From contig JBFFCO010000001.1 of NCBI GenBank assembly GCA_041559835.1, positions 1-24,461 of the forward strand: a DNA stretch of 24,461 nt. Reading direction: 5' to 3'. Below the pieces are notes generated by a model, which saw only the letters and a list, made by a program, of their open reading frames with translations, was not told where the DNA came from and did no database searches. The translations under genes and the position numbers were made by a program. Source of the DNA: Minisyncoccia bacterium (lineage in GTDB: Bacteria; Patescibacteriota; Minisyncoccia; UBA6257; JAAZHW01). Numbering within the stretch: the first letter of the stretch is position 1; the number at the start of each line of letters is the position of its first letter. Of this stretch, positions 57-19,067 are shown piece by piece.

Positions 57-497
57 ATGAAAAAAGAAATTAAGAAATTATCAGAAGAATTTGTAAAAAG
101 ATCTATTATTCAATGGCTTTCAAGAAATAAATATGGTAGAAATTTAAAATTTGGAGGATTGAGAGATAAGGGGGTGGATATAAGAGTTCAACATAATAAT
201 TATGGCAGATATTTTTTAATTGAAACAAAGGGAGAATCTAAAATAGCACAAGGACAAGAAGTGGCATTTGTTTATTCATTGGGACAAATAATAACAAGAA
301 TGAATGTTAAAGAAAAAACAAAATATAAATATGGATTAGGATTGCCCGAATCAAGTGCTAAAATTGCTATTAGAAGAATACCTTATCAAATAGCAAAACA
401 GCTTTATTTAAATGTTTTTTCTGTAAATAATAAAGGGGTAGTTAAATTATATACCCCCGAAGATTTAAAAAAATATCAAAATGAAAAAAGAAGATAA
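57..497 (+). CDS. Small PD-(D/E)XK restriction-endonuclease-fold protein
   Basis: 146 aa with GVDI...FLIETKG (D...ExK spacing), followed by the helix SLGQIITRM. Overlaps mod by 17 nt. Confidence 0.55.
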   Translation: MKKEIKKLSEEFVKRSIIQWLSRNKYGRNLKFGGLRDKGVDIRVQHNNYGRYFLIETKGESKIAQGQEVAFVYSLGQIITRMNVKEKTKYKYGLGLPESSAKIAIRRIPYQIAKQLYLNVFSVNNKGVVKLYTPEDLKKYQNEKRR

Positions 498-2250
498 AAA
501 AGACAAAAAAATATTCCGATTGGAAAAGGAAATTGAGAAATTAAAGAAAAGTATTAAAAGGCAAAAATATGGTTTAGTTTGGGCTGATATTCCAGAAAAA
601 TTTGAAGACGATGTTGAAAACAAATTGCCTATATTAAAAGAAATTCCAAGATTGGCTATTTCAAGTAAAGACGATAAGCCAACTCATATTTTAATTGAAG
701 GCGATAATTATCATTCTTTAACTTGTTTGAATTATACCCACAAGGGAAAAATTGATATTATTTATATTGATCCACCTTACAATACTGGAAGTGATGGTTT
801 CAAATATAATGACAAAAGAATTGCTGATAAATACCCTGATGGTGTTTTAGTTGAAAAAGATAATCCTTACAGGCATAGCTATTGGCTTTCTTTTATGGCT
901 AAAAGATTGGAATTGACAGAAAGTTTATTGAGTAAAAGGGGGGTTGTTTTTATAAGTGTTGGAGAAGATGAATTAGCACAATTAAAGTTTCTTTGCGATG
1001 AAGTGTTTGGAAAAGATAATTTCGTTTCAATTGTTGCAAGAGTGGCTAAAACAGCGAGCGATAAAGGAAATTTCTTTGCTCCGTCAATTGATTTCGTTGT
1101 TTGCTATGCAAAAAATATAAAATACTTGAAACCATTTATTGGTAAGGTGGATATAAAATTATACAAAAAGAAAGATAAGAATGGATTTTATAGAGATGAT
1201 GTTGCTTTATATCAGTCATCTTTGGATCCTATGAGGGGATGCTCAAATCAAAGATATTATATTTTATGCCCTGATAATTCTTTGGTAATCCCACGGGGTA
1301 ATGTTTTTCCAAAGATAAAAAAAGAGGCTGAAAATATAAAGCCCAAAACAAAAGAAGACAAGGTTTGGCGATGGACTTATAAAACTTATTTAGAGAAAAA
1401 AGACTTTTTGGTTTTCAAAAAATCAAAAAGGTCTCCTCTTCTTGATGAAAAAGGGGAACAAGCAAAATGGAATATTTATACAAAAAGTTATTTGAGAGAT
1501 AGAGAAGAAAAAGGAACAAAGCCAAGAAATTATTTAGATAGATTTATAAACAGAAAAGGTGCTGATTTTCTAAAAACAATTGATATAGATTTTAGATATT
1601 CAAAACCAACAGAATTGATTAAATATTTATTGGAAATAACACAATTAAAAAAAGCTATTATTCTTGATTTTTTTGCTGGCTCTGGAACAACGGCCCAAGC
1701 AGTTTTAGAATTAAACAGAGAAGATAAGGGAAAAAGGCAGTTCATTTTAGCCACTAATAATGACGAGGTTGTTAACGGCACAAAACACAAAATAATGACT
1801 GATATTTGTTATCCGAGAATAGAAAGAATTATAAAAGGTTATAGGGAATATTCAGCATTAGGAAATTCAATTAAATATTATAAAACTGATTTTGTCGGGA
1901 AAAATAATATTCTTAATGCTGATGATAGAGATAAATCGGAATTAGCACATAAAGCGGGGACTTTATTAGCAATAGCAGAGAATACCCTTGATCTAAAAAA
2001 GGAAAATAGATTTTATCAGATTTTTGAGAATAAAAATCAATATACAGCCGTGTATTTTCGAGAAGAAGCTAAAAAATTTGATGATTTTATCAAAGAAATT
2101 TTGAAATTAGAAAAAGATGTTTCGGTTTATATTTTTAATTGGGAAGATGATATTGAAATTCAAGAATTTGAAGAAGCTAAAAATATTAAAGTAAAAACTA
2201 TTCCAAAGCCGATTTTGGAAATATACAAAAGAATTTATAATTTAATTTAA
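481..2250 (+). CDS. mod: Type III restriction-modification DNA adenine methyltransferase (Mod)
   Basis: Catalytic motif IV DIIYIDPPYNTG precedes SAM-binding motif I ILDFFAGSGTT (beta-class order). Also has the N-terminal LIEGDN motif and lies 4 nt upstream of a Res-like helicase. Confidence 0.93.
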   Translation: MKKEDKKDKKIFRLEKEIEKLKKSIKRQKYGLVWADIPEKFEDDVENKLPILKEIPRLAISSKDDKPTHILIEGDNYHSLTCLNYTHKGKIDIIYIDPPYNTGSDGFKYNDKRIADKYPDGVLVEKDNPYRHSYWLSFMAKRLELTESLLSKRGVVFISVGEDELAQLKFLCDEVFGKDNFVSIVARVAKTASDKGNFFAPSIDFVVCYAKNIKYLKPFIGKVDIKLYKKKDKNGFYRDDVALYQSSLDPMRGCSNQRYYILCPDNSLVIPRGNVFPKIKKEAENIKPKTKEDKVWRWTYKTYLEKKDFLVFKKSKRSPLLDEKGEQAKWNIYTKSYLRDREEKGTKPRNYLDRFINRKGADFLKTIDIDFRYSKPTELIKYLLEITQLKKAIILDFFAGSGTTAQAVLELNREDKGKRQFILATNNDEVVNGTKHKIMTDICYPRIERIIKGYREYSALGNSIKYYKTDFVGKNNILNADDRDKSELAHKAGTLLAIAENTLDLKKENRFYQIFENKNQYTAVYFREEAKKFDDFIKEILKLEKDVSVYIFNWEDDIEIQEFEEAKNIKVKTIPKPILEIYKRIYNLI

Positions 2251-2254
2251 CTTT

Positions 2255-4627
2255 ATGATTTTATTTAATCCATTAGATTTTCAAAAAGAAGCAGTCAGGG
2301 AATTGACTAATGCTTTTGTTAAAATTTGGAAAAGAAAAGAAGGGCAGTTGCCGATTGTTTTCAAATCTCCGACTGGAAGCGGAAAAACTTTTATGATTGC
2401 TAATTTTATTAGGCGATTAAACCATCTTCCTCAATGGCAAGAAGATAAGGCATTTATTTGGATTACTTTTTCTGATGATTTAGCAATACAAAGCAGGGAT
2501 AAATTCAAAGAGTATTTTGAAAATCAATTAGAAAACGAACTTCTAACCATTGAGAATATCAATCAAGGTAGATTATTGGAAAATGATATTATATTTTTGA
2601 ATTGGCAAAAGATTGTTTCGAGAAGTGCTGAAAATAGAATTTTACGAAGACCCGATGATGAGTTAATGAGAAAAGAACAAGGTAAGTATTGGGAAGATTT
2701 GATTGACGGCACAAAGGAAGAAAAACGAGAAATTATTTTGGTTATTGATGAGGCTCATAAAAATAAAAGCACTATACTCGCTCAAGAAATTATTGATTAT
2801 ATTGATCCAAAAATAATTTTACATATTACGGCTACTCCTAATGAAAAAGATGAATTAGGGTCGCGAAGAATAGGAGGTTTTATTGAAACAGAAAGGGAAA
2901 AAATTATTGATGAGGGCTTAATTAAAGAGAAGATTGTCGTCCAAACAGAAGAGGATTTAAGAAAACATAAGGGAGAAGATTTAGATAAAATTCTTCTTGA
3001 TTTGGGAATTGAAAAAAGAAATGAATTGATAGAAGAATACAAAAAAATTGGCAAAAAAATAAATCCTCTAATGTTAATTCAATTACCTAATGACGACAAA
3101 AAATTGATTGAAACTGGTAGGGAAACAAAAGAAATGGTGGTTTGTGATTATTTTAAGAAAATTAGAATAAACAAAAATAAAATTGCTAAGTGGTTTGATG
3201 GTAGAAAAGAAAATATGGAAAGAATAACTGAAAATGATGATGATGTTGATTTTATGCTTTTTAAACAAGCCGCTGGAACTGGCTGGGATTGTCCCCGTGC
3301 TTCTATTTTGGTTATGTTTAGGGAAATAAAATCAAATAAATTCTATACTCAAACAATTGGCAGAATTTTAAGAATGCCCGAACCACAATTAAAAGAAGAT
3401 TATAAAGATAGTGAAAAATTAAGAATTGGGTATTTGTTTACTAATTATAAGAGAAGTGAAATAGAAATACCCGACCAAAACGGAAAAAATAAACCATATA
3501 CAAAATTCGCTTACAAGAAAAAAGGAATGAAAAATATTTCTTTAAAATCCGCTTATGTCCCCCGTCTTGATTATGGAGATATCCCGCAATCTTGGAAATT
3601 TCAAGAAAGTTTTAAGCAATCAATGGATAAATATTTTAAAATTACAAAAAATGATATTTTGGGAAAGGCGAAGGAAAAATTAAAAAAGGCGGGTGTTAAT
3701 CTTTTAAGTGAATTAACTAATCAAATTATTGTTAATGCTGAATTTGAAGATTTTGATAATTTAAATTTTGAATTTAAAGAAAAAGGAGATGACTTAGATT
3801 TAGAAATGTCTTCTAATGATGTTGAAAAATATTTTAATTATATTTGTTATCAATTATTACAAGAACAAACAGATGACGAGGCAAAAATAAGCAATATAGC
3901 AAGATCTTGGAGTAGATTAAAATCAGCAATTAGGGTTTGGTTTAAGGGAGTGTTAGGTGAAAATAGTGATTATTATTACAGGGTTTTTATAAAAGATATA
4001 CAAAAAGGTGAAGAAAGTAAATTTAGACCAGCTATAACTCAAGCCATAAAAGATTTTAGACCAATGGCTGAAAAATTATTGAAAGAGAAGAAAAAGAAAC
4101 AGGAAGAAAAAGAAGCCCCTATTTTTGAAATAAAAGATGTTTATCATTTTACTGATGATTATGTTGAAGAACCTCAAAAATTGTGTGTTTTGGATAAATT
4201 CTTTGTCTTAAAAGAATATGATGGGAAGGAAAATGAAATGAAATTTAAGGATTATTTAGAAAAGAAAGGAAATAATATTGAATGGTGGTTTAAGAATAGA
4301 GATTACGGAAAAAATTATTTTGGTATTAAATATTTCAATACTGCCGACAAAAAAGAATCCTTATTCTACCCCGACTGGATTATTAAATTCAAAAATGGCA
4401 AGTTTGGAATTTTTGATACAAAAAAAGGAAATACTGCTAAAAATACAGAAGGCAGAGCCGAAGGATTAGCGGAAAAATTAAAAGAGTTGGGGAGTAAGTA
4501 TATTGGCGGAATAGTTGTTTTGGAAAATGGAGTTTGGTATTACAATAATTCTTTAAAATACAAATACGAAAAAGGGAAAATTGGAAGTGATAAAAATTGG
4601 AAAAAATTAGAGGAATTATTTAATTAA
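2255..4627 (+). CDS. res: Type III restriction enzyme Res subunit (SF2 helicase plus C-terminal nuclease)
   Basis: Walker A SPTGSGKT, Walker B IDEAH, GWDCPRA, QTIGRILR, and a C-terminal FYPDWII...IFDTKKG nuclease motif. Confidence 0.9.
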   Translation: MILFNPLDFQKEAVRELTNAFVKIWKRKEGQLPIVFKSPTGSGKTFMIANFIRRLNHLPQWQEDKAFIWITFSDDLAIQSRDKFKEYFENQLENELLTIENINQGRLLENDIIFLNWQKIVSRSAENRILRRPDDELMRKEQGKYWEDLIDGTKEEKREIILVIDEAHKNKSTILAQEIIDYIDPKIILHITATPNEKDELGSRRIGGFIETEREKIIDEGLIKEKIVVQTEEDLRKHKGEDLDKILLDLGIEKRNELIEEYKKIGKKINPLMLIQLPNDDKKLIETGRETKEMVVCDYFKKIRINKNKIAKWFDGRKENMERITENDDDVDFMLFKQAAGTGWDCPRASILVMFREIKSNKFYTQTIGRILRMPEPQLKEDYKDSEKLRIGYLFTNYKRSEIEIPDQNGKNKPYTKFAYKKKGMKNISLKSAYVPRLDYGDIPQSWKFQESFKQSMDKYFKITKNDILGKAKEKLKKAGVNLLSELTNQIIVNAEFEDFDNLNFEFKEKGDDLDLEMSSNDVEKYFNYICYQLLQEQTDDEAKISNIARSWSRLKSAIRVWFKGVLGENSDYYYRVFIKDIQKGEESKFRPAITQAIKDFRPMAEKLLKEKKKKQEEKEAPIFEIKDVYHFTDDYVEEPQKLCVLDKFFVLKEYDGKENEMKFKDYLEKKGNNIEWWFKNRDYGKNYFGIKYFNTADKKESLFYPDWIIKFKNGKFGIFDTKKGNTAKNTEGRAEGLAEKLKELGSKYIGGIVVLENGVWYYNNSLKYKYEKGKIGSDKNWKKLEELFN

Positions 4628-11817: not shown

Positions 11818-13644
11818 CTACTCATATCCTTTTGCTTGGAGATTGAATAATCGGGCATATGTCTTATTCGCCTTAATGAGTTCTGGATGACTTCCCAATT
11901 CCGATAATCTCCCCTTCTCAATAACTGCAATCCTATTTGCCCTCCTCACGGTGGAAAAACGATGGGATATCAAAATAACCGTCCTGTCTTTTGGCAATGA
12001 CTCCAATTTCTTAAATATCTTCTCCTCTGCCTCGGCATCAATTGATGATGTCGGCTCATCTAAAATCAAAACCTGTGGGTCGCGATAAAATGTCCTCGCT
12101 AATGCCAATTTTTGCCATTGCCCAATTGACGGCTCAATTCCACCCTTGAATCTCTTACCCAACATCTGCTCATATCTATCCTCCCACTCTTCAATAAATA
12201 TATCTGCCTCACTTGCTTTGGCGGCCATCTTAATTTTCTCAATCTTGCTTTTCTTATCAGTCCTTCCAACAGAAATTGCCTCCCTCACAACAAGATGATA
12301 TCTGTCATAATCTTGAAAAAGAACCCCCATTATTTTATACCAACTCCCCAAATCTATATCCTTCAAATCATTTCCATCAATTAAGATTTTGCCCTCATCG
12401 GGATCATAAAAACGACAAAGTAATTTAACAAATGTTGTTTTTCCCGAACCATTAATTCCAACGAGGGCAATCTTCTCTCCCGGAGCAATCCTAATAGAAA
12501 AATCTTTAAGCACAAATCTTTCCGTCCCCGGATATTTAAAATTAACATTTTCAAAAACTATTTCCGGAGTTTCCTTGCTTGATAAAACTATTCCCTTTTT
12601 TGGCCTTTCCACTACTGGCTTAATATCTAAAAATTCAAAAAAATCATTAACAAATAATGCATCCTCATATTGTTTACCGAGGGATCCAAATAATCCCATA
12701 AATGAACTCCTTAAATTCCCCAGTGAAGAAATAATAAATGTTAATGTTCCAACTAATATTAATCCATTAGCCGCCCCATAAACAAACCATGCCACCGTAA
12801 AGCCCATTGACAGAGCCGATAGAATAAAGGCAATTGATTTTTGCTTCAATCTTTTTTTCTCAGCTTTTTTCTCTTCATTTTGGAATTCTATAAAAAGATC
12901 TCTGATTATTGAAAGAAAGTACTTTATATTTTGAAATAATTTTAATTCAGTCAAAGATGATATTCCAAAGAAATGTTGGCGAAAATTATAAAATTTTCTT
13001 TTTGTTTCTGCCTTCGCTCCTTGAATTGCCCAGGTTTGATAACCATATTTTGATGAAATAATAAATTCCGGGATAGAGAAAACCAAAATTATAATCAATA
13101 TCCACCATTCATAAGAAATAATTATTATGCTCGCGAAAATTACCCCAATAATATCCCTAAATATATCAAACTGCCTCACGAAAGAATTATTTATCATATA
13201 TGTCCCTCTATCTGATATTTTATTAAATAAGTCATTCATTTTGGGATCTTCGTGGATGGCGATATCAATATCTCCTCTCTTTTTCAATGTTAAAATTTCA
13301 AATTTTTCACTTAGGTAAAAATATAAAAATCTTTCAAAATACATTTGAAGTGTGAAAAATATTGACGGTAGCCATGTGGAGACAATTAAGGCGGATAAGT
13401 AAATGATGGTCCCTGATGATATTCCTGCTCCGCCTACCAATACTAATTCATCAATCAAAAGCCCTCTGAAAAAAGCGATTAAGAATGGTGATATTGATAT
13501 TCCGAAGTAAATAAAGAATATGCCAATAATTTGACCTTTCTTTTGTCTCCAAATCATTTTTGTGATTCGGATATTATTTTTTAGAAACTGAGATATTATT
13601 TTCCACGATATCTCCTGTTTCCCTTGTTCATCATCAATATTCAT
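11818..13644 (-). CDS. ABC exporter, fused permease and ATP-binding domains
   Basis: Several N-terminal TM helices, Walker A GINGSGKTT, signature-like PSIGQWQ, Walker B ILDEPT, ISHR switch. Confidence 0.93.
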   Translation of the reverse strand: MNIDDEQGKQEISWKIISQFLKNNIRITKMIWRQKKGQIIGIFFIYFGISISPFLIAFFRGLLIDELVLVGGAGISSGTIIYLSALIVSTWLPSIFFTLQMYFERFLYFYLSEKFEILTLKKRGDIDIAIHEDPKMNDLFNKISDRGTYMINNSFVRQFDIFRDIIGVIFASIIIISYEWWILIIILVFSIPEFIISSKYGYQTWAIQGAKAETKRKFYNFRQHFFGISSLTELKLFQNIKYFLSIIRDLFIEFQNEEKKAEKKRLKQKSIAFILSALSMGFTVAWFVYGAANGLILVGTLTFIISSLGNLRSSFMGLFGSLGKQYEDALFVNDFFEFLDIKPVVERPKKGIVLSSKETPEIVFENVNFKYPGTERFVLKDFSIRIAPGEKIALVGINGSGKTTFVKLLCRFYDPDEGKILIDGNDLKDIDLGSWYKIMGVLFQDYDRYHLVVREAISVGRTDKKSKIEKIKMAAKASEADIFIEEWEDRYEQMLGKRFKGGIEPSIGQWQKLALARTFYRDPQVLILDEPTSSIDAEAEEKIFKKLESLPKDRTVILISHRFSTVRRANRIAVIEKGRLSELGSHPELIKANKTYARLFNLQAKGYE

Positions 13645-13669
13645 ATGTTTTGCTTGTGGATAATTTTAT

Positions 13670-13697
13670 TTGACTTTTACCGAGCGGTCGGTATAAT
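13670..13697 (+). promoter_or_regulatory. Sigma70 promoter convergent on the NYN gene, with a palindromic operator-like site in its spacer
   Basis: TTGACT (13670-13675)-16 nt-TATAAT (13692-13697); TACCGA-GCGG-TCGGTA at 13678-13693. Confidence 0.65.
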
Positions 13698-13701
13698 ACA
13701 A

Positions 13702-14598
13702 TTAATCGCGCTCAATGGATTCGTCCATTGAGATACTCATGGACATGGAAGATTCTTCTTCCACGTCCATTTTTTCTAATTCCTTTCTTAAATTATCAAC
13801 AGAACAAGCATAAAAAAGACTACCCCTTATCTTGTTATACTCTTTCCCCTTACACCCAGAACCAAAAACTAAAACTACTTTCTTGCCTTTTTCAATTAGA
13901 TATTCAGCTAAAGCCGAATAATCTCCATCTCCGCTAAAAAGCAAAAGAGTTTCATAATCATCCAAAAAATTAAAAGCATCTCTTGTTATTTCTACATCAA
14001 AATCACATTTTCTAATAGGACAGGGTTCTTTTAATGATTTTTGCAATCCGTCAATATTAAAGTTTAATCCACTCAATTCAGAGTCTAAATTCTCAACAAA
14101 CTGATAAATTTGATTATAAATATTCATATTCTTTCTTGATATTAGATAATATTTCTTTTCTTCTCCATTTTCGTCAACAGAAGACTCCTCTCTTTCTATC
14201 ATCCCGTTTTTTACCTTGTTATTAAATTCATATAATTTATTTGAGATTTCAGAATTTGTTTTTGTGATCCCATCTAACATATTAAATAATTTTTTTATTA
14301 TTTTTCTAAAATGATTCTGCTCCTTTAAATATACGGGCATCCATTTTACTTCCTTAAAAATTGGGCTATATCCAATTTTCTCAATATCCATTCTAAAATT
14401 TTTTGATTTTTTATTTTTGATATCCTCCCCATAATAAAATCTTTTATCAATAATCCTTGGGTATCTGCTCAAAAAAGAAAATAATTTTTTAGGACAAACT
14501 TCCCACTTTAATTTCTTTCTCCAACCATAAACATTAGCCCAATCAATCAGGGCTAATGTCTCCTTTTTTATCTTCAATTTGAATTTCTTTTTCTGCAT
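13702..14598 (-). CDS. NYN (LabA/DUF88, PIN-like) domain putative RNase with a ~110-aa helical insertion
   Basis: ALIDWANVY, RFYYG, RKCDFDVEI, LFSGDGDYSALAEYL...GKKV: the acidic catalytic set of NYN/PIN-like folds. Confidence 0.85.
   Translation of the reverse strand: MQKKKFKLKIKKETLALIDWANVYGWRKKLKWEVCPKKLFSFLSRYPRIIDKRFYYGEDIKNKKSKNFRMDIEKIGYSPIFKEVKWMPVYLKEQNHFRKIIKKLFNMLDGITKTNSEISNKLYEFNNKVKNGMIEREESSVDENGEEKKYYLISRKNMNIYNQIYQFVENLDSELSGLNFNIDGLQKSLKEPCPIRKCDFDVEITRDAFNFLDDYETLLLFSGDGDYSALAEYLIEKGKKVVLVFGSGCKGKEYNKIRGSLFYACSVDNLRKELEKMDVEEESSMSMSISMDESIERD
13704..13775 (+). ncRNA. Putative ~72-nt small RNA antisense to the 3' end of the NYN gene
   Basis: Follows the promoter. Hairpin CTCAATGGA-TTCG-TCCATTGAG (13711-13732), then a 13-bp interrupted hairpin (13739-13770) followed by a T-run to 13775. 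There is no expression evidence. Confidence 0.45.
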
Positions 14599-14599
14599 A

Positions 14600-14857
14600 T
14601 TAAATTTCTATTGGGTATCTTATATCATATAATTTTTCTGTGATTTCTATATCGCTAATTCTATCAAGAGAGAATCTCCTTATTCCATTTTTATTTTGAT
14701 CCCAAGCGAAAAGACCAATCTCGCCATCATCGTGGCTAAAACTATATGGCTCAATATATCGCCAACCCTCACTTGTCCCATCTTTTTCAAGATAAATAAT
14801 TTTCAAAACTTTTCTTTCTTGGGCTGATTTTTTAATTATTTCAATTATATTTTCCAT
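14600..14857 (-). CDS. Stand-alone WYL-domain protein (85 aa, no HTH)
   Basis: LKIIY...WRYIEPYSF...LFAWD...IRRFSLDRISDI matches the WYL pattern Y..R.vePy..l.a...R.FrldRI. The ATG is 7 nt after the leuS stop. Confidence 0.8.
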   Translation of the reverse strand: MENIIEIIKKSAQERKVLKIIYLEKDGTSEGWRYIEPYSFSHDDGEIGLFAWDQNKNGIRRFSLDRISDIEITEKLYDIRYPIEI

Positions 14858-14864
14858 AAAATTA

Positions 14865-17279
14865 TTATCCAACAACGATATTTATTAGTTTGTCTTTGAT
14901 GAATATTATTTTTTTGATTTTTTTGTCAGAAATTAACTTCTTAATCTTGCCATCCTCAAAAGCCAATTTTTTTGCTTCATCTTCGCTGATACCAATAGGA
15001 GTAGGCGATTTTGAGCGGACTTTCCCATTGACTTGAATTACCAAATCAAAATTTTTTCTTGAAATGATCTTCTCACTATACTTTGGCCACTTTTCCAAAT
15101 GAATAGATTTCTTATTTCCCATTGCTTGCCATAATTCCTCAGCCATATGAGGGGCAAGAGGGGAGAGGATTCTTAGGAAATTCTCTAAATCAATTTTTTT
15201 GAATTTTCCTTCAACTTTTTGCCAAGAATTTAAACATTCCATAAGAGAGCTAATTGCAGTATTAAATTCTAAATTCTCAATATCTTCTCCTATTTTTTTA
15301 ATTGACAAATGGAGGGATTTTTTTATTTCTTCTTCATCTTTTTTGCTTATTGGCTTTTGCCCTTCTTGAATTTGCTCTTGATAGAAATTCCAAATTCTAT
15401 TCAAAAACCTGCTAATTCCATTTAATCCTTGTGGATTCCATGAACCACCCTGACTAAATGGACCAATAAATCCAAAATACATTCTTATTGAATCAGCCCC
15501 ACTTTTTTTGACTTCCTCGTCTGGGTCTATCACATTACCCTTTGATTTTGACATTTTTTGATTGTCGGGACCAAGTATCATTCCGTGAGCTCTCCTTGCC
15601 AAAAATGGCTCATCAAAATCCAAATAGCCCATATAATTAAGGGCTTTAATTATGAATCGAGAATAAATAAGATGCATTGTGTTATGCTCTGACCCGCCGA
15701 CATAAAGAGGGATGGGCATCCATTTTTTTATTTTTTTATTATCAGCAAATTTATTTTTGTTTTTAGGGTCGGCATATCTTAAGAAATACCATGATGAATC
15801 TACGAATGTATCCATCGTGTCGGTTTCTCTTTCTGCTGGCTCATTGCAATTAGGACATTTTATATTCTTCCAATTTTCTGCTCTATCTAATGGTGATTTT
15901 CCTTCATCTGTGGGTAGATAGTTTTTCAAATCAGGCAATTTAATTGGCAAATTCTTTTCTTTTTCCGGAAGCCAACCGCATTTTGAACAAAAAATCATAG
16001 GAATAGGAGTCCCCCAATATCTTTGCCTTGATATTATCCAATCTCTTAGGCGATAGTCAGTTGATTTTTTGCCGGATATAAATAATGAAATTTTTTCCAT
16101 CGCTATTTTATTTTCTAATCCAGAAAAACTGCCCGAATTTATTAATTGCCCTTCTCCGAGAAATGGCTTATTTCTTGGCAATTCTTCATCTTTTGGTTGA
16201 ATGACTGGGATTATTTCTAATCCAAATTTTTTGGCGAAATCCCAATCTCTTTGATCATGAGCAGGCACGGCCATGATTGCCCCTGTCCCATATGAAGAAA
16301 GGACATAGTCAGCTATCCAAATAGGTATTTTTTTTCTATTTGCTGGATTTATTGCATATGAGCCAGTGAATATTCCAGTTTTGTTGTTTATCTCTTGCTG
16401 CCTTTCTAAATCGGTTTTTCTTTTTGCTTCTTGGATATACTTTTTTATTGCTTGCCTTCTTCCATCGCTTGTTATTTTTTCTACCATTGGGTGTTCGGGC
16501 GATAAGACCAAATAAGTGGCTCCGAATATTGTGTCAGCCCTTGTTGTGAATACTTCAATTTTATCATTTATATTTTCAACTGAAAAATTTATCAAAAATC
16601 CATCTGATTTTCCAATCCAATTTCTTTGGGCTATTTTTGCTGGACGAGGCCAATCTAATTGATTTACTCCTTCAAAAAGTTCATCAGCGAATTTTGTTAT
16701 TTTCATCATCCACTGCTCTATATTTCTTTGCTCCACTCTTTCTCCGCATCTTTCACAGCAACCATTTACCACCTGCTCATTTGCGAGAACCGTTTTATCC
16801 TTTGGGCACCAGTTTGCTTTTGTTTTATCTCTATAAACTAATCCATTCTCATACATTTTTAAGAAAATCCATTGATTCCATTTATAGTATTGTGGATTTA
16901 TTGTTTGGACTTCTCTATTCCAATCAAATGTTGCCCCAATTCTTTTGAGTTGCTCTTTCATATATGAAATATTTTTTTTCGTCCAGTCTGATGGGTGGAG
17001 ATTATTTTTAATAGCGGCATTTTCAGCGGGCAATCCAAAGGCATCGAATCCAATAGGATATGAAACATTTTTCCCAGTCATTCTTAAGTATCTTGCTAAA
17101 ATGTCTGACAATGAATAAGTATACCAGTGTCCGACATGGAGGTTGCCTGATGAGTAGGGAAATTCAACTAATAACATAAAGTTTTTTTTGCCCTTGACTT
17201 CGTCTTTTGCACTATTTATTTTTATTTTTTCCCAGTGCTTTTGCCACTTTTTTTCAATTTTTGATGGATTATATTTCAT
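14865..17279 (-). CDS. leuS: Leucine--tRNA ligase
   Basis: MKYNPSKIEKKWQ start, PYSSGNLHVGH (HIGH), an editing domain with GTGAIMAVPAHDQRD, SRQRYWGTPIP, KMSKSKGN. Confidence 0.98.
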   Translation of the reverse strand: MKYNPSKIEKKWQKHWEKIKINSAKDEVKGKKNFMLLVEFPYSSGNLHVGHWYTYSLSDILARYLRMTGKNVSYPIGFDAFGLPAENAAIKNNLHPSDWTKKNISYMKEQLKRIGATFDWNREVQTINPQYYKWNQWIFLKMYENGLVYRDKTKANWCPKDKTVLANEQVVNGCCERCGERVEQRNIEQWMMKITKFADELFEGVNQLDWPRPAKIAQRNWIGKSDGFLINFSVENINDKIEVFTTRADTIFGATYLVLSPEHPMVEKITSDGRRQAIKKYIQEAKRKTDLERQQEINNKTGIFTGSYAINPANRKKIPIWIADYVLSSYGTGAIMAVPAHDQRDWDFAKKFGLEIIPVIQPKDEELPRNKPFLGEGQLINSGSFSGLENKIAMEKISLFISGKKSTDYRLRDWIISRQRYWGTPIPMIFCSKCGWLPEKEKNLPIKLPDLKNYLPTDEGKSPLDRAENWKNIKCPNCNEPAERETDTMDTFVDSSWYFLRYADPKNKNKFADNKKIKKWMPIPLYVGGSEHNTMHLIYSRFIIKALNYMGYLDFDEPFLARRAHGMILGPDNQKMSKSKGNVIDPDEEVKKSGADSIRMYFGFIGPFSQGGSWNPQGLNGISRFLNRIWNFYQEQIQEGQKPISKKDEEEIKKSLHLSIKKIGEDIENLEFNTAISSLMECLNSWQKVEGKFKKIDLENFLRILSPLAPHMAEELWQAMGNKKSIHLEKWPKYSEKIISRKNFDLVIQVNGKVRSKSPTPIGISEDEAKKLAFEDGKIKKLISDKKIKKIIFIKDKLINIVVG

Positions 17280-17368
17280 ATTATTGTTTTGTTTTTTAAT
17301 TCTAGATTGCGAAATATTTTTTAATAATCTTATTTTTTTCCTTTCTACTGCTTCAGCATTTCTATTCC

Positions 17369-17517
17369 TGTCACCCCTGTCCGCCAGAGGTGGCACATCC
17401 GCCTCAGGCGGGCGGATAATACTCCGGCAGCCTGCCCGCCTATGGCGGAGGGTCTAAAAACCATGGCAAGCAAGTGGTAATAGCGAGGCAGAGATTCCCG
17501 CCTTCGCGGGAATGACA
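17369..17517. repeat. Inverted doublet of TGTC-tagged palindromes; the left copy is interrupted by CCGCC-N3-GGCGG modules
   Basis: TGTCACCCCTG[insert]AGGGTCTAAAAACCATGGCAA...AGATTCCCGCCTTCGCGGGAATGACA. The flanks are collinear with the intact doublet at 20683-20766. Confidence 0.8.
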
Positions 17518-18482: not shown

Positions 18483-19067
18483 ATGGATATATATAAACCA
18501 AAATTTAAGATTTGTGTTTCAGGGGCCGCCGAAACAGGGCATTGCTCACCCACTGCTTTTGAAAATGCAATGGAATTAGGAAGGGAAATCGCAAGGCATG
18601 ATTGTATTTGTGTAACAGGGGCAACCACGGGTGTGCCTTATTGGGCAGCAAAGGGAGCAAAAGAAGAGGGGGGAATAGTTATTGGACTATCTCCAGCCGC
18701 TAGCTACAATCATCATATCAATTCTTACAAATTGCCAATTGATTATCACGACTTAATAATTTACACTGGCTTTAATTATTCTGGCAGAAACCTATTATTG
18801 GTTCGTTCTTCTGATGCAACCATTACCGTTTGCGGCAGAATTGGAACACTTAATGAATTCACAATTGCCTTTGAAGATAATCAGGTGATAGGTGTTTTGG
18901 TGGGCAGTGGGGGAACAGCAGACCAAGTGAGAGGGATTGTTGAGAAGGGGCATAGGGGTCCCGGAAAAATAATTTTCAATGGCAATCCTAAGGAATTAGT
19001 AGAGAAAGTAATTGAAATGATAAAGAAGGAATACGGAGAAATAGAAAATAAAAATTCTATTTACTAA
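18483..19067 (+). CDS. LOG/SLOG-family nucleotide-binding protein (TIGR00725-like)
   Basis: VSGAA..., GREIA...VTGATTGVP..AAKGAKEEGG.VIGLSP, GRNLLLVRSSD, CGRIGTLNEF (PGGxGTxxE-like). Confidence 0.85.
   Translation: MDIYKPKFKICVSGAAETGHCSPTAFENAMELGREIARHDCICVTGATTGVPYWAAKGAKEEGGIVIGLSPAASYNHHINSYKLPIDYHDLIIYTGFNYSGRNLLLVRSSDATITVCGRIGTLNEFTIAFEDNQVIGVLVGSGGTADQVRGIVEKGHRGPGKIIFNGNPKELVEKVIEMIKKEYGEIENKNSIY

Follow-up and report, generated by a model that had tools for sequence, protein, structure and literature searches.

A 24,461-nucleotide (nt) stretch of DNA from a Minisyncoccia bacterium (GenBank assembly GCA_041559835.1, contig JBFFCO010000001.1, positions 1 to 24,461 of the forward strand), referred to here as the window, carries a compact cassette made up of a gene for an 85-aa protein with a WYL domain, a gene for a predicted NYN ribonuclease (RNase) and, facing them, a predicted small RNA. 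On the minus strand the order is leuS, WYL-only gene, NYN gene. The leuS gene, encoding leucyl-tRNA synthetase (14865–17396, minus strand), ends with a TAA stop codon at 14865–14867; after a gap of 7 nt (14858–14864) the WYL-only gene (14600–14857, minus strand) starts with an ATG at 14857 and runs to a stop at 14600–14602, and a single nucleotide (14599) then separates it from the NYN gene (13702–14598, minus strand), which starts with an ATG at 14598, stops at 13702–13704 and encodes a LabA-like, PIN-fold protein of 298 aa predicted to be an RNase. An earlier note, made from the sequence of the stretch, had described this co-oriented arrangement, with the same WYL length and gaps and with no visible terminator or separate promoter, and the coordinates agree with it throughout. 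No terminator-like site was found on the minus strand between 13300 and 17800, and the sole minus-strand promoter-like match near the end of leuS (14871–14844) has its −10 element inside the WYL open reading frame (ORF). This match was considered as a WYL promoter and rejected, on account of the position of its −10 and because promoter-like matches in the region occur at the count expected by chance (21 observed vs 19.4 expected). The upstream, co-oriented leuS is context rather than a conserved partner, its transcript probably being the carrier of the cassette in the window.

The WYL and NYN ORFs are real genes and not chance ORFs, since both proteins are conserved and both fold confidently in AlphaFold2 (mean predicted local distance difference test, pLDDT, 93.6 and 86.4, respectively). 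One WYL gene and six NYN genes are present in the host genome, a Patescibacteria assembly that totals 760 kb in 138 contigs at 93% completeness.

The product of the first gene is almost entirely WYL domain. Pfam family PF13280 covers residues 4–72 of the 85 (E 2.3e-12, 47.2 bits, with a cut-off of 21.8), and no other Pfam domain was found in the protein. The AlphaFold2 model consists of an N-terminal helix and a five-strand, Sm-like SH3 barrel, which Foldseek matched with a probability of 1.0 to the WYL domains of PafBC, BrxR, CapW and DriD (TM-score 0.76–0.83, root-mean-square deviation 1.4–3.5 Å, mostly ~2 Å); Sm and Hfq proteins were weak matches of the same model. By sequence, the closest solved relatives are PafBC, BrxR, PafC and CapW. 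A winged helix-turn-helix (wHTH) and a C-terminal WCX domain are both absent, with the WYL domain spanning nearly the whole protein, and the earlier description of a WYL protein devoid of a helix-turn-helix (HTH) is thus upheld, together with a genuine WYL fold by Pfam, AlphaFold2 and Foldseek alike. Searched with PADLOC, the protein matched Cas-associated WYL models and the WYL end of an AbiEii model, and NCBIfam gave no match for either the WYL or the NYN protein.

The WYL-only family comprises 137 clusters in a large protein collection, all of 68–100 aa, and many of these share their longest contig with NYN clusters. Its mean column identity is 69%, compared with 57% for the NYN family. Near-invariant basic residues are found at K25, R33, K56, R60, R61, R66 and R80, and a charged ligand is likely. 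Single-stranded DNA (ssDNA) is contacted in the CapW protein of Rhizobium leguminosarum by S144, R164, R168 and R184 (PMC11662680). In a profile alignment to BrxR and CapW only R184 coincides with a conserved residue of the WYL-only family, the invariant R60; both arginines of the CapW RWHVR motif align, by profile and not by superposition, with E and F50, and the CapW serine aligns with E24. With one of the four contacts kept, ssDNA bound in the manner of CapW is therefore not to be assumed as the ligand.

Related WYL domains also occur as parts of larger proteins. P0248, a 350-aa fusion without an HTH, combines a TIR_2 domain (119–239) with a WYL domain (271–336) that ranks among the nearest relatives of the WYL-only family (E 3e-15). 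Five further proteins of 350–580 aa (P0319, P0325, P0359, P0365 and P0380) begin with a WYL domain of this type and continue for 250–480 residues that neither match Pfam nor resemble the NYN profile; these may be uncharacterised effector domains fused to WYL. A role for WYL as a sensor attached to an effector would fit both the TIR-WYL fusion and the AbiEii-WYL model.

The second protein matches Pfam family PF01936 (NYN; E 7e-14, 52.9 bits, with a cut-off of 24.2) in two stretches that lie ~110 residues apart. In the AlphaFold2 model these form a PIN-like core, from which a hairpin of two ~37-residue helices with a poorly predicted tip is inserted. The only significant fold match in the PDB (E ≤ 0.001) is 2qip, a LabA-like NYN protein (E 1e-6, TM-score 0.75 by target), and matches among clusters of the AlphaFold Database (AFDB) were confined to unnamed or ‘NYN domain’ proteins. 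The coiled-coil insert (14029–14316, minus strand; NYN residues ~95–190, with helices at 95–132 and 155–190) is missing from 2qip and from short NYN relatives, carries conserved residues on both helices, and gave no informative fold match in the PDB or among the AFDB clusters. In the core, the acidic residues D19, D199, D201, E203, D207, D224 and D226 are invariant in 25 sequences including that of the window, with D199, D201, E203 and D224 invariant in 120 NYN sequences; N22 and the stretch S222–D226 are further invariant residues of the NYN signature. Judged by these residues the NYN gene is catalytically intact, and RNase activity is predicted. There are 504 homologues at E ≤ 0.001, of 235–330 aa, and those with a named source among the matches listed are all from Patescibacteria or metagenomes. 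The classification of the PIN superfamily remarks that nuclease studies had not been made on any LabA-like NYN protein (PMC5499597).

Relatives of the cassette were collected from a scan of one genome per species, which gave 80 loci in two groups; these loci are species representatives that are partly related to one another, and the counts below overstate their independence. The first group (L008–L038) consists of 31 loci, about 29 of them usable, mostly with a long NYN form of 260–316 aa, and the second (L039–L087) has a short NYN form of ~180–220 aa without the insert. In the long-form group an 85–88-aa WYL-only ORF lies directly upstream of NYN, on the same strand, in 26–27 of the ~29 usable loci. 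The exceptions include L013, an intact NYN gene without WYL; L016, cut by the end of its contig; L032, with an N-terminally truncated NYN; and L036, where a divergent NYN without the insert is interrupted by a stop. The long NYN form is accordingly accompanied by WYL in every intact locus except L013. Across the 23 loci in which both start codons could be placed, the distance from WYL stop to NYN start is −10 to +12 nt, with seven ATGA overlaps, and the translational coupling that had been proposed from the window alone turns out to belong to a near-obligate, coupled pair.

The short form behaves differently, 48 of its 49 loci having neither WYL nor any other conserved partner protein. A conserved protein partner of short NYN was sought and none was found apart from the WYL protein of the one exception, L049. 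There, a 188-aa NYN protein without the insert (1555–1881 and 1854–2417 being the coordinates of the pair) has a WYL gene directly upstream (profile E 1.7e-14), and the small RNA described below is present; this locus may represent an intermediate or an independent recruitment of WYL.

Facing the cassette, a sigma-70-type promoter (13670–13697, plus strand; TTGACT, a 16-nt spacer and TATAAT, 11 of 12 positions matching) points into the 3′ end of the NYN gene. The RNA predicted to start from it is ~72 nt long (13704–13776, plus strand) and fully antisense to the NYN 3′ end, covering codons 275–298 and the stop. By folding, it is composed of a 5′-AAUCGCG, a 9-bp hairpin with a UUCG loop (13711–13732), a GAUAC linker, a 13-bp terminator hairpin (13739–13770) and a U-run (13771–13776), all on the plus strand; the two hairpins with the six U residues (13711–13776) fold at −31 kcal/mol, with a z-score of −7.

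A motif search placed a single copy of this RNA at the 3′ end of the NYN gene, encoded by the strand opposite to it, both for the window and for 28 of the 31 loci of the long-form group. Left out of the alignment were L034, a longer-stemmed version; L038, whose variant AUCUCG was missed by the search pattern; and L035, cut by the end of its contig. The 29 aligned copies share A-A-U-C-A-C-G, nine base pairs (in a few copies more) around a 4-nt loop and then A-U-A-Y, with UC.CGC invariant throughout. Within the hairpin, 94.3% of alignment cells are paired and eight of the nine pairs show compensatory change; the covariation score is 0.66, compared with 0.29 for shuffled alignments (0 of 500 reach the observed value) and at most 0.24 with slid partners. 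The promoter is likewise conserved, matching at least 9 of 12 positions in 25 of the 29 loci as against 6% at control positions, and its −10 ends 7–8 nt before the U of UCACG in 26 of the 29. Because the −10 stands in this fixed register, the conserved AAUCACG can be taken as the 5′ end of the RNA. Two types are distinguished by the position of the U-run, which falls at +28 in a one-hairpin RNA (~35–40 nt) and at +55–61 in a two-hairpin RNA (~65–72 nt). The antisense RNA that had been claimed for the window is thus a conserved, covarying RNA gene with a predicted transcript. The window copy has UCGCG (13706–13711) where the family has UCACG, and the same A-to-G change occurs in an unrelated short-form locus (L104:1742–1789); the position therefore tolerates a purine swap.

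A covariance model built from the family (R1) matches the window at 13704–13746 (43 bits, E 6e-6) and has matches in 68 of 81 sources, all on the strand opposite to NYN and, wherever checked, at the NYN 3′ end. These include ~37 of the 49 short-form NYN loci without WYL, and the model also matches the three closest of six short-form NYN genes from an independent genome sample. In the genome of the window there is a single match, with none at the five other NYN paralogues. At the gathering threshold Rfam reported tRNAs alone, and relaxing to E ≤ 1 brought up no meaningful match around 13600–13850. The RNA therefore partners NYN with or without WYL, which makes WYL an add-on to an NYN-RNA core. 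The distribution indicates that the RNA belongs to the NYN family as a whole, with WYL and the coiled coil as a later addition in one clade. The earlier note had envisaged a three-part module of sensor, RNase and RNA: the third part is real, the parts are not equal.

Relative to the NYN stop codon, the predicted RNA ends at the stop in 18 loci, and it lies inside the coding region in nine loci and the window. In the window the ORF reads through the small-RNA gene, giving NYN a C-terminal tail (13705–13770, minus strand; residues 277–298, ending in SMDESIERD) that is missing in the nearest homologues and is predicted to be disordered (pLDDT 52–58). The codons of this tail are the reverse complement of the small-RNA core; likewise, the C-terminal peptide IPxDFSxGRD of long-tailed NYN proteins is, as is SMDESIERD of the window, the reverse-strand translation of the RNA gene. 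That the hairpins at the NYN 3′ end might be a lineage-specific palindromic insertion was also considered, and is ruled out by the alignment and the covariance search, which show a conserved RNA gene; lineage-specific in the window is only the read-through of that gene by the NYN ORF.

Just upstream of the −35 element of the RNA promoter lies a 9-mer with the sequence of a DnaA box, TGTGGATAA (13655–13663, plus strand; TTATCCACA on the other strand). In the alignment it recurs 48–55 nt before UCACG, exactly in eight of the 29 loci (the window, L021, L022, L024, L027, L029, L031 and L032) and, in about six others, with a single mismatch; the background frequency of the 9-mer is 0.003 per 90 nt per strand, and about half of the exact copies in 365 kb of loci are at the RNA-promoter site. 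From this placement, DnaA or another factor may control the RNA promoter. In the window this motif also lies 12 nt upstream of the start of an ABC-transporter gene at 13644. The 26 nt around the motif (13654–13679) recur at 100% identity on another contig of the assembly (C95, 39–64), and a core of 14–18 nt recurs on at least seven more contigs of the 760-kb genome, which suggests that these surroundings are a dispersed regulatory motif.

The position of the cassette behind leuS, which the earlier note had put in its headline, stands as a description of the window and falls as a feature of the system: homologues of leuS or of the ABC transporter are missing from the flanks of every related cassette, leuS lying beside none of the 80 loci, and the linkage was dropped as a part of the system. 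A co-oriented upstream gene of some kind ends no more than 15 nt from the WYL start in ~14 of 23 loci, and a foreign transcript usually carries the cassette, probably that of leuS in the window.

The cassette is rare. The close WYL-only family occurred in none of 400 other genomes of the phylum, evenly sampled, in which there were only three weak WYL matches, and the broader NYN family occurred in six of the 400 (1.5%), always in the short form. In the NYN tree, sister cassettes come from different candidate classes, among them Buchananbacteria, Magasanikbacteria, Falkowbacteria, Azambacteria, Vogelbacteria and Nomurabacteria, and near-identical cassettes are also found in different candidate classes. 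NYN of the window, itself long-branched, groups with L008, L009, L011, L012 and L019 in a clade of six that is well supported. A phage origin was considered and rejected, as 2.9 million viral contigs yielded one weak NYN match and no cassette. Taken together, these distributions mark the cassette as rare, patchy, horizontally moved and cellular; its accessory and mobile nature, as opposed to a housekeeping one, follows from its rarity and from its patchiness across classes.

About half of the related cassettes lie in or beside restriction-modification (R-M) operons. The recurrent large flanking genes, by Pfam, are those for type III Mod (N6_N4_Mtase), type III Res (ResIII with an endonuclease) and Eco57I-like type IIG enzymes, and another recurrent flank consists of a ResIII/SNF2 Res followed by T5orf172. 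Among 96 neighbours within two genes of the cassette, ResIII was counted six times, N6_N4_Mtase five, TnsA-like endonuclease four, N6_Mtase and Eco57I three each, HSDR_N, GmrSD_N, HNH, RadC and DUF2130 two each, and Type_ISP_C, EcoEI_R_C, Methylase_S and Fic once each, the remainder being housekeeping genes. In the control set, which comprised 139 neighbours of short NYN genes within the phylum, no R-M family was among those common to at least two neighbours. In five loci (L010, L011, L020, L023 and L033) the order is mod-WYL-NYN-res; the gap between mod and WYL is 2–4 nt in four of them, L020 having one extra gene between, and that between NYN and res is 5–18 nt in three and 144 nt in L011, the contig of L010 not containing res. 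In three further loci a type IIG gene ends −4 to +10 nt from the WYL start. These R-M-linked gene orders are spread over at least two NYN clades, and probably over four. As R-M and defence genes neighbour the relatives and no R-M family recurs in the control, a role in a conflict system is a reasonable expectation.

The window itself contains a type III R-M operon (57–4627, plus strand) composed of a 146-aa ORF for a small nuclease, mod and res, which is context for the cassette, being separated from it by 9 kb and a switch of strand. Its Res is a close homologue (1184 bits) of that of L012 (Magasanikbacteria), where res lies two small genes upstream of the WYL-NYN pair; in L021, a homologue of the 146-aa ORF is encoded near the cassette. 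Also in the window, a few kb away from the cassette and beside a Trp/Tyr permease-like gene, 18483–19067 (plus strand) encodes a SLOG cluster-4 (LOG/lysine-decarboxylase-like) protein (Pfam E 2.5e-35). SLOG domains are frequent nucleotide-sensing or nucleotide-processing components of conflict systems.

We propose that the cassette is a mobile accessory element of Patescibacteria that works as a toxin or defence module whose RNase is restrained by RNA, WYL being its sensor or partner, a reading whose chances of being right we judge to be evenly balanced. The NYN endoribonuclease would be the effector or toxin, and the strongly promoted convergent RNA (5′-AAUCACG, 9-bp hairpin, AUAY and terminator) would restrain it as an RNA antitoxin or regulator. 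The restraint could be exerted through pairing with the 3′ end of the NYN mRNA, through binding of the enzyme by the conserved single-stranded flanks, or through both; some protein recognition of the RNA is favoured because these flanks are conserved even in non-coding DNA. In the clade of the window, two things would have been added to NYN, the long hairpin of coiled coil within the protein and the obligate, translationally coupled WYL-only partner of 85 aa. The WYL barrel, docked on the coiled coil, would bind a single-stranded nucleic acid or nucleotide cue and so tune or release the RNase. The protein genes, usually promoterless, would ride on the upstream gene, be it leuS in the window or mod or a type IIG enzyme gene in many relatives, and the whole would probably serve as a second-line abortive or addiction device tied to R-M systems. 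Copies embedded in R-M operons could act like PrrC in EcoprrI, as a latent RNase that fires when restriction is defeated.

A more ambitious version of this proposal is put forward tentatively, and we hold it to be more doubtful than the proposal itself. In it, NYN and the AAUCACG-hairpin RNA would constitute a new class of RNA-restrained RNase that joins a type III-like mode of binding to a type I layout; the bare WYL domain, seated on the coiled coil, would sense single-stranded nucleic acid arising after failed restriction or DNA damage and release the RNase as an abortive back-up of R-M operons, and the DnaA box would tie the supply of antitoxin to replication.

Several points weigh against a defence or toxin role for the cassette. 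PADLOC has no model that matches the NYN protein, and the NYN candidate HEC-09, an unrelated HTH-NYN protein that is embedded in Hma systems and differs in architecture, showed no defence against phages when tested (Payne et al. 2024, bioRxiv 10.1101/2024.01.29.577857). For bacterial NYN proteins, a function in the processing of tRNA and rRNA has been proposed as well (PMC5499597). The contacts through which CapW-type proteins hold ssDNA are mostly not conserved in this WYL, by alignment. A physical partnership of WYL and NYN is without Rosetta-stone support, since a search of the 150 best WYL representatives turned up no natural WYL-NYN fusion. Housekeeping genes are the neighbours in about half of the loci, the window included, and the R-M association derives from ~15 loci that are partly related to each other.

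Some of these points lead to the strongest of the rival explanations, in which the cassette serves RNA metabolism outside any conflict: NYN would mature or degrade specific RNAs, possibly including the convergent RNA, with WYL as an Hfq/Sm-like adaptor and the small RNA acting in trans. The Sm-like barrel and its weak Foldseek matches to Hfq and Sm agree with such an adaptor, as do the proposed functions of other NYN proteins in tRNA and rRNA processing (PMC5499597), the location of the window cassette behind an aminoacyl-tRNA synthetase gene and the housekeeping neighbours of half of the loci. Set against this, the linkage to leuS is unique to the window, the enrichment of R-M genes is absent from the control, and a prevalence of ~1.5% or less in sampled genomes, patchy across classes, is not what such a function would predict; we regard this explanation as unlikely.

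Less probable again, and quite improbable in our view, is a type II pair of the VapBC kind, in which the upstream WYL protein would be the antitoxin blocking a PIN-like NYN toxin and the RNA a mere terminator or minor antisense regulator. The layout, a small upstream gene translationally coupled to the gene of a PIN-fold nuclease, matches that of such pairs, and so do the patchy, mobile distribution and the R-M company. However, the WYL protein has neither a DNA-binding domain for autoregulation nor a disordered tail with which to wrap the toxin, and its conservation exceeds that of the nuclease (69% vs 57%), the reverse of the usual antitoxin pattern. Moreover, L013 retains an intact long NYN and the RNA without WYL, and 48 of the 49 short NYN genes lack WYL or any other conserved partner while ~37 of the 49 carry the RNA with its conserved single-stranded motifs. 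WYL is less likely to be a plain protein antitoxin because it has no DNA-binding domain, is more conserved than the nuclease, and is dispensable in L013 and in the whole short-form group.

Very unlikely, finally, is a post-transcriptional R-M controller in which RNase, RNA and WYL would set the timing or ratio of Mod and Res as an RNA-level analogue of the C protein, other copies being remnants: it would account for the five loci whose cassette is fitted tightly between mod and res, for the three in which the cassette immediately follows a type IIG gene, and for the RNA gene falling within the NYN 3′ coding region where res follows at once (L023, L033 and L020), but many loci, including the window, have an intact, conserved cassette and no R-M gene within two genes of it, the several unrelated R-M types involved (III, IIG, I, ISP and IV) fit a hitch-hiker better, and the short NYN-RNA core has no R-M linkage.

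The preferred reading, an RNA-restrained RNase module with an added WYL partner, would have consequences beyond this locus. The genomes of Patescibacteria are tiny and hold few recognised systems of defence or toxin-antitoxin (TA) type, and a conserved, mobile RNase cassette that repeatedly nests in their R-M operons would, if true, extend their immune repertoire. To our knowledge, no WYL protein without a DNA-binding part has before been seen in combination with a dedicated small RNA and an NYN nuclease. A full-text literature search (for WYL with NYN, and for NYN with R-M, defence, antisense RNA, toxin-antitoxin or Patescibacteria) returned no description of the pair or of the RNA, and the WYL fusions to several nucleases listed by Makarova et al. 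2014 do not include NYN. The cassette offers a compact system in which to ask how a WYL domain passes a ligand signal to an enzyme instead of a promoter, and by what means a PIN-fold RNase is held in check by an RNA, with parts that are small and easy to test (85 aa, ~270 aa and ~40–70 nt).

Among known systems, the wHTH-WYL-WCX regulators CapW, BrxR, DriD and PafBC share the WYL barrel fold of the cassette (TM-score ~0.8) and are, as it is, associated with defence and R-M loci (PMC11662680). Unlike them, the protein described here lacks both the wHTH and the WCX domain; therefore it cannot be a transcription factor, and its output must act on a partner protein or RNA. A WYL protein encoded next to an RNase is also seen with Cas13d. 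The WYL1 protein of that system is a separate protein of ~390 aa with an added ribbon-helix-helix domain, encoded in a CRISPR locus and thought to modulate the RNase. Its structure (PDB 6oaw) is a weak fold match of the window WYL (TM-score 0.61), and the cassette differs in having no CRISPR, an NYN in place of a HEPN RNase and a bare 85-aa WYL protein. The NYN protein, for its part, shares with the LabA-like NYN proteins (2qip; the NYN.COG1432 group) the PIN-like core and an SGDGD-type acidic motif, and departs from them in its ~100-aa coiled-coil insert, its obligate WYL partner and its convergent RNA, none of which is described in the PIN-superfamily classification (PMC5499597).

With respect to its RNA, the cassette can be compared with two classes of TA system. 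Type I systems include several with convergent antisense RNAs that overlap the toxin gene at its 3′ end, such as txpA/RatA and bsrG/SR4 of Bacillus subtilis, and also SymE/SymR, the toxin usually being a small, hydrophobic membrane peptide. The cassette has in common with them a convergent, strongly promoted predicted RNA complementary to the 3′ end of the putative toxin mRNA, over all ~72 nt in the window. It is unlike them in that the putative toxin is a soluble PIN-fold enzyme of 260–300 aa (298 aa in the window) and not a small membrane peptide, and in that the RNA keeps invariant single-stranded motifs even in non-coding DNA, which is more than antisense pairing needs. Type III systems (ToxIN, CptIN and TenpIN) resemble the cassette in combining a predicted endoribonuclease with a structured RNA that could inhibit it (~36–70 nt), and in being mobile and patchy. 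Type III antitoxin RNAs are tandem repeats located upstream of the toxin gene, on the same strand, and are processed by the toxin. The RNA of the cassette, in contrast, is single-copy, has its own promoter and lies downstream on the opposite strand, and the fold of the putative toxin is NYN/PIN and not that of ToxN.

A parallel to the R-M-embedded copies is PrrC, an RNase held latent by the EcoprrI R-M enzyme and activated when a phage inhibits that enzyme (PMC1484252, PMC3458546). As in the EcoprrI type Ic locus, the RNase gene lies between R-M genes in the five relatives with the order mod-WYL-NYN-res. There is no relation in sequence or fold, PrrC being composed of an ABC-ATPase and an anticodon nuclease (ACNase) domain and having neither an RNA partner nor WYL, and the cassette of the window, with its type III R-M operon 9 kb away, is not embedded in an R-M operon. 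By analogy, PrrC-like latency is a plausible working model for the copies that are embedded in this way.

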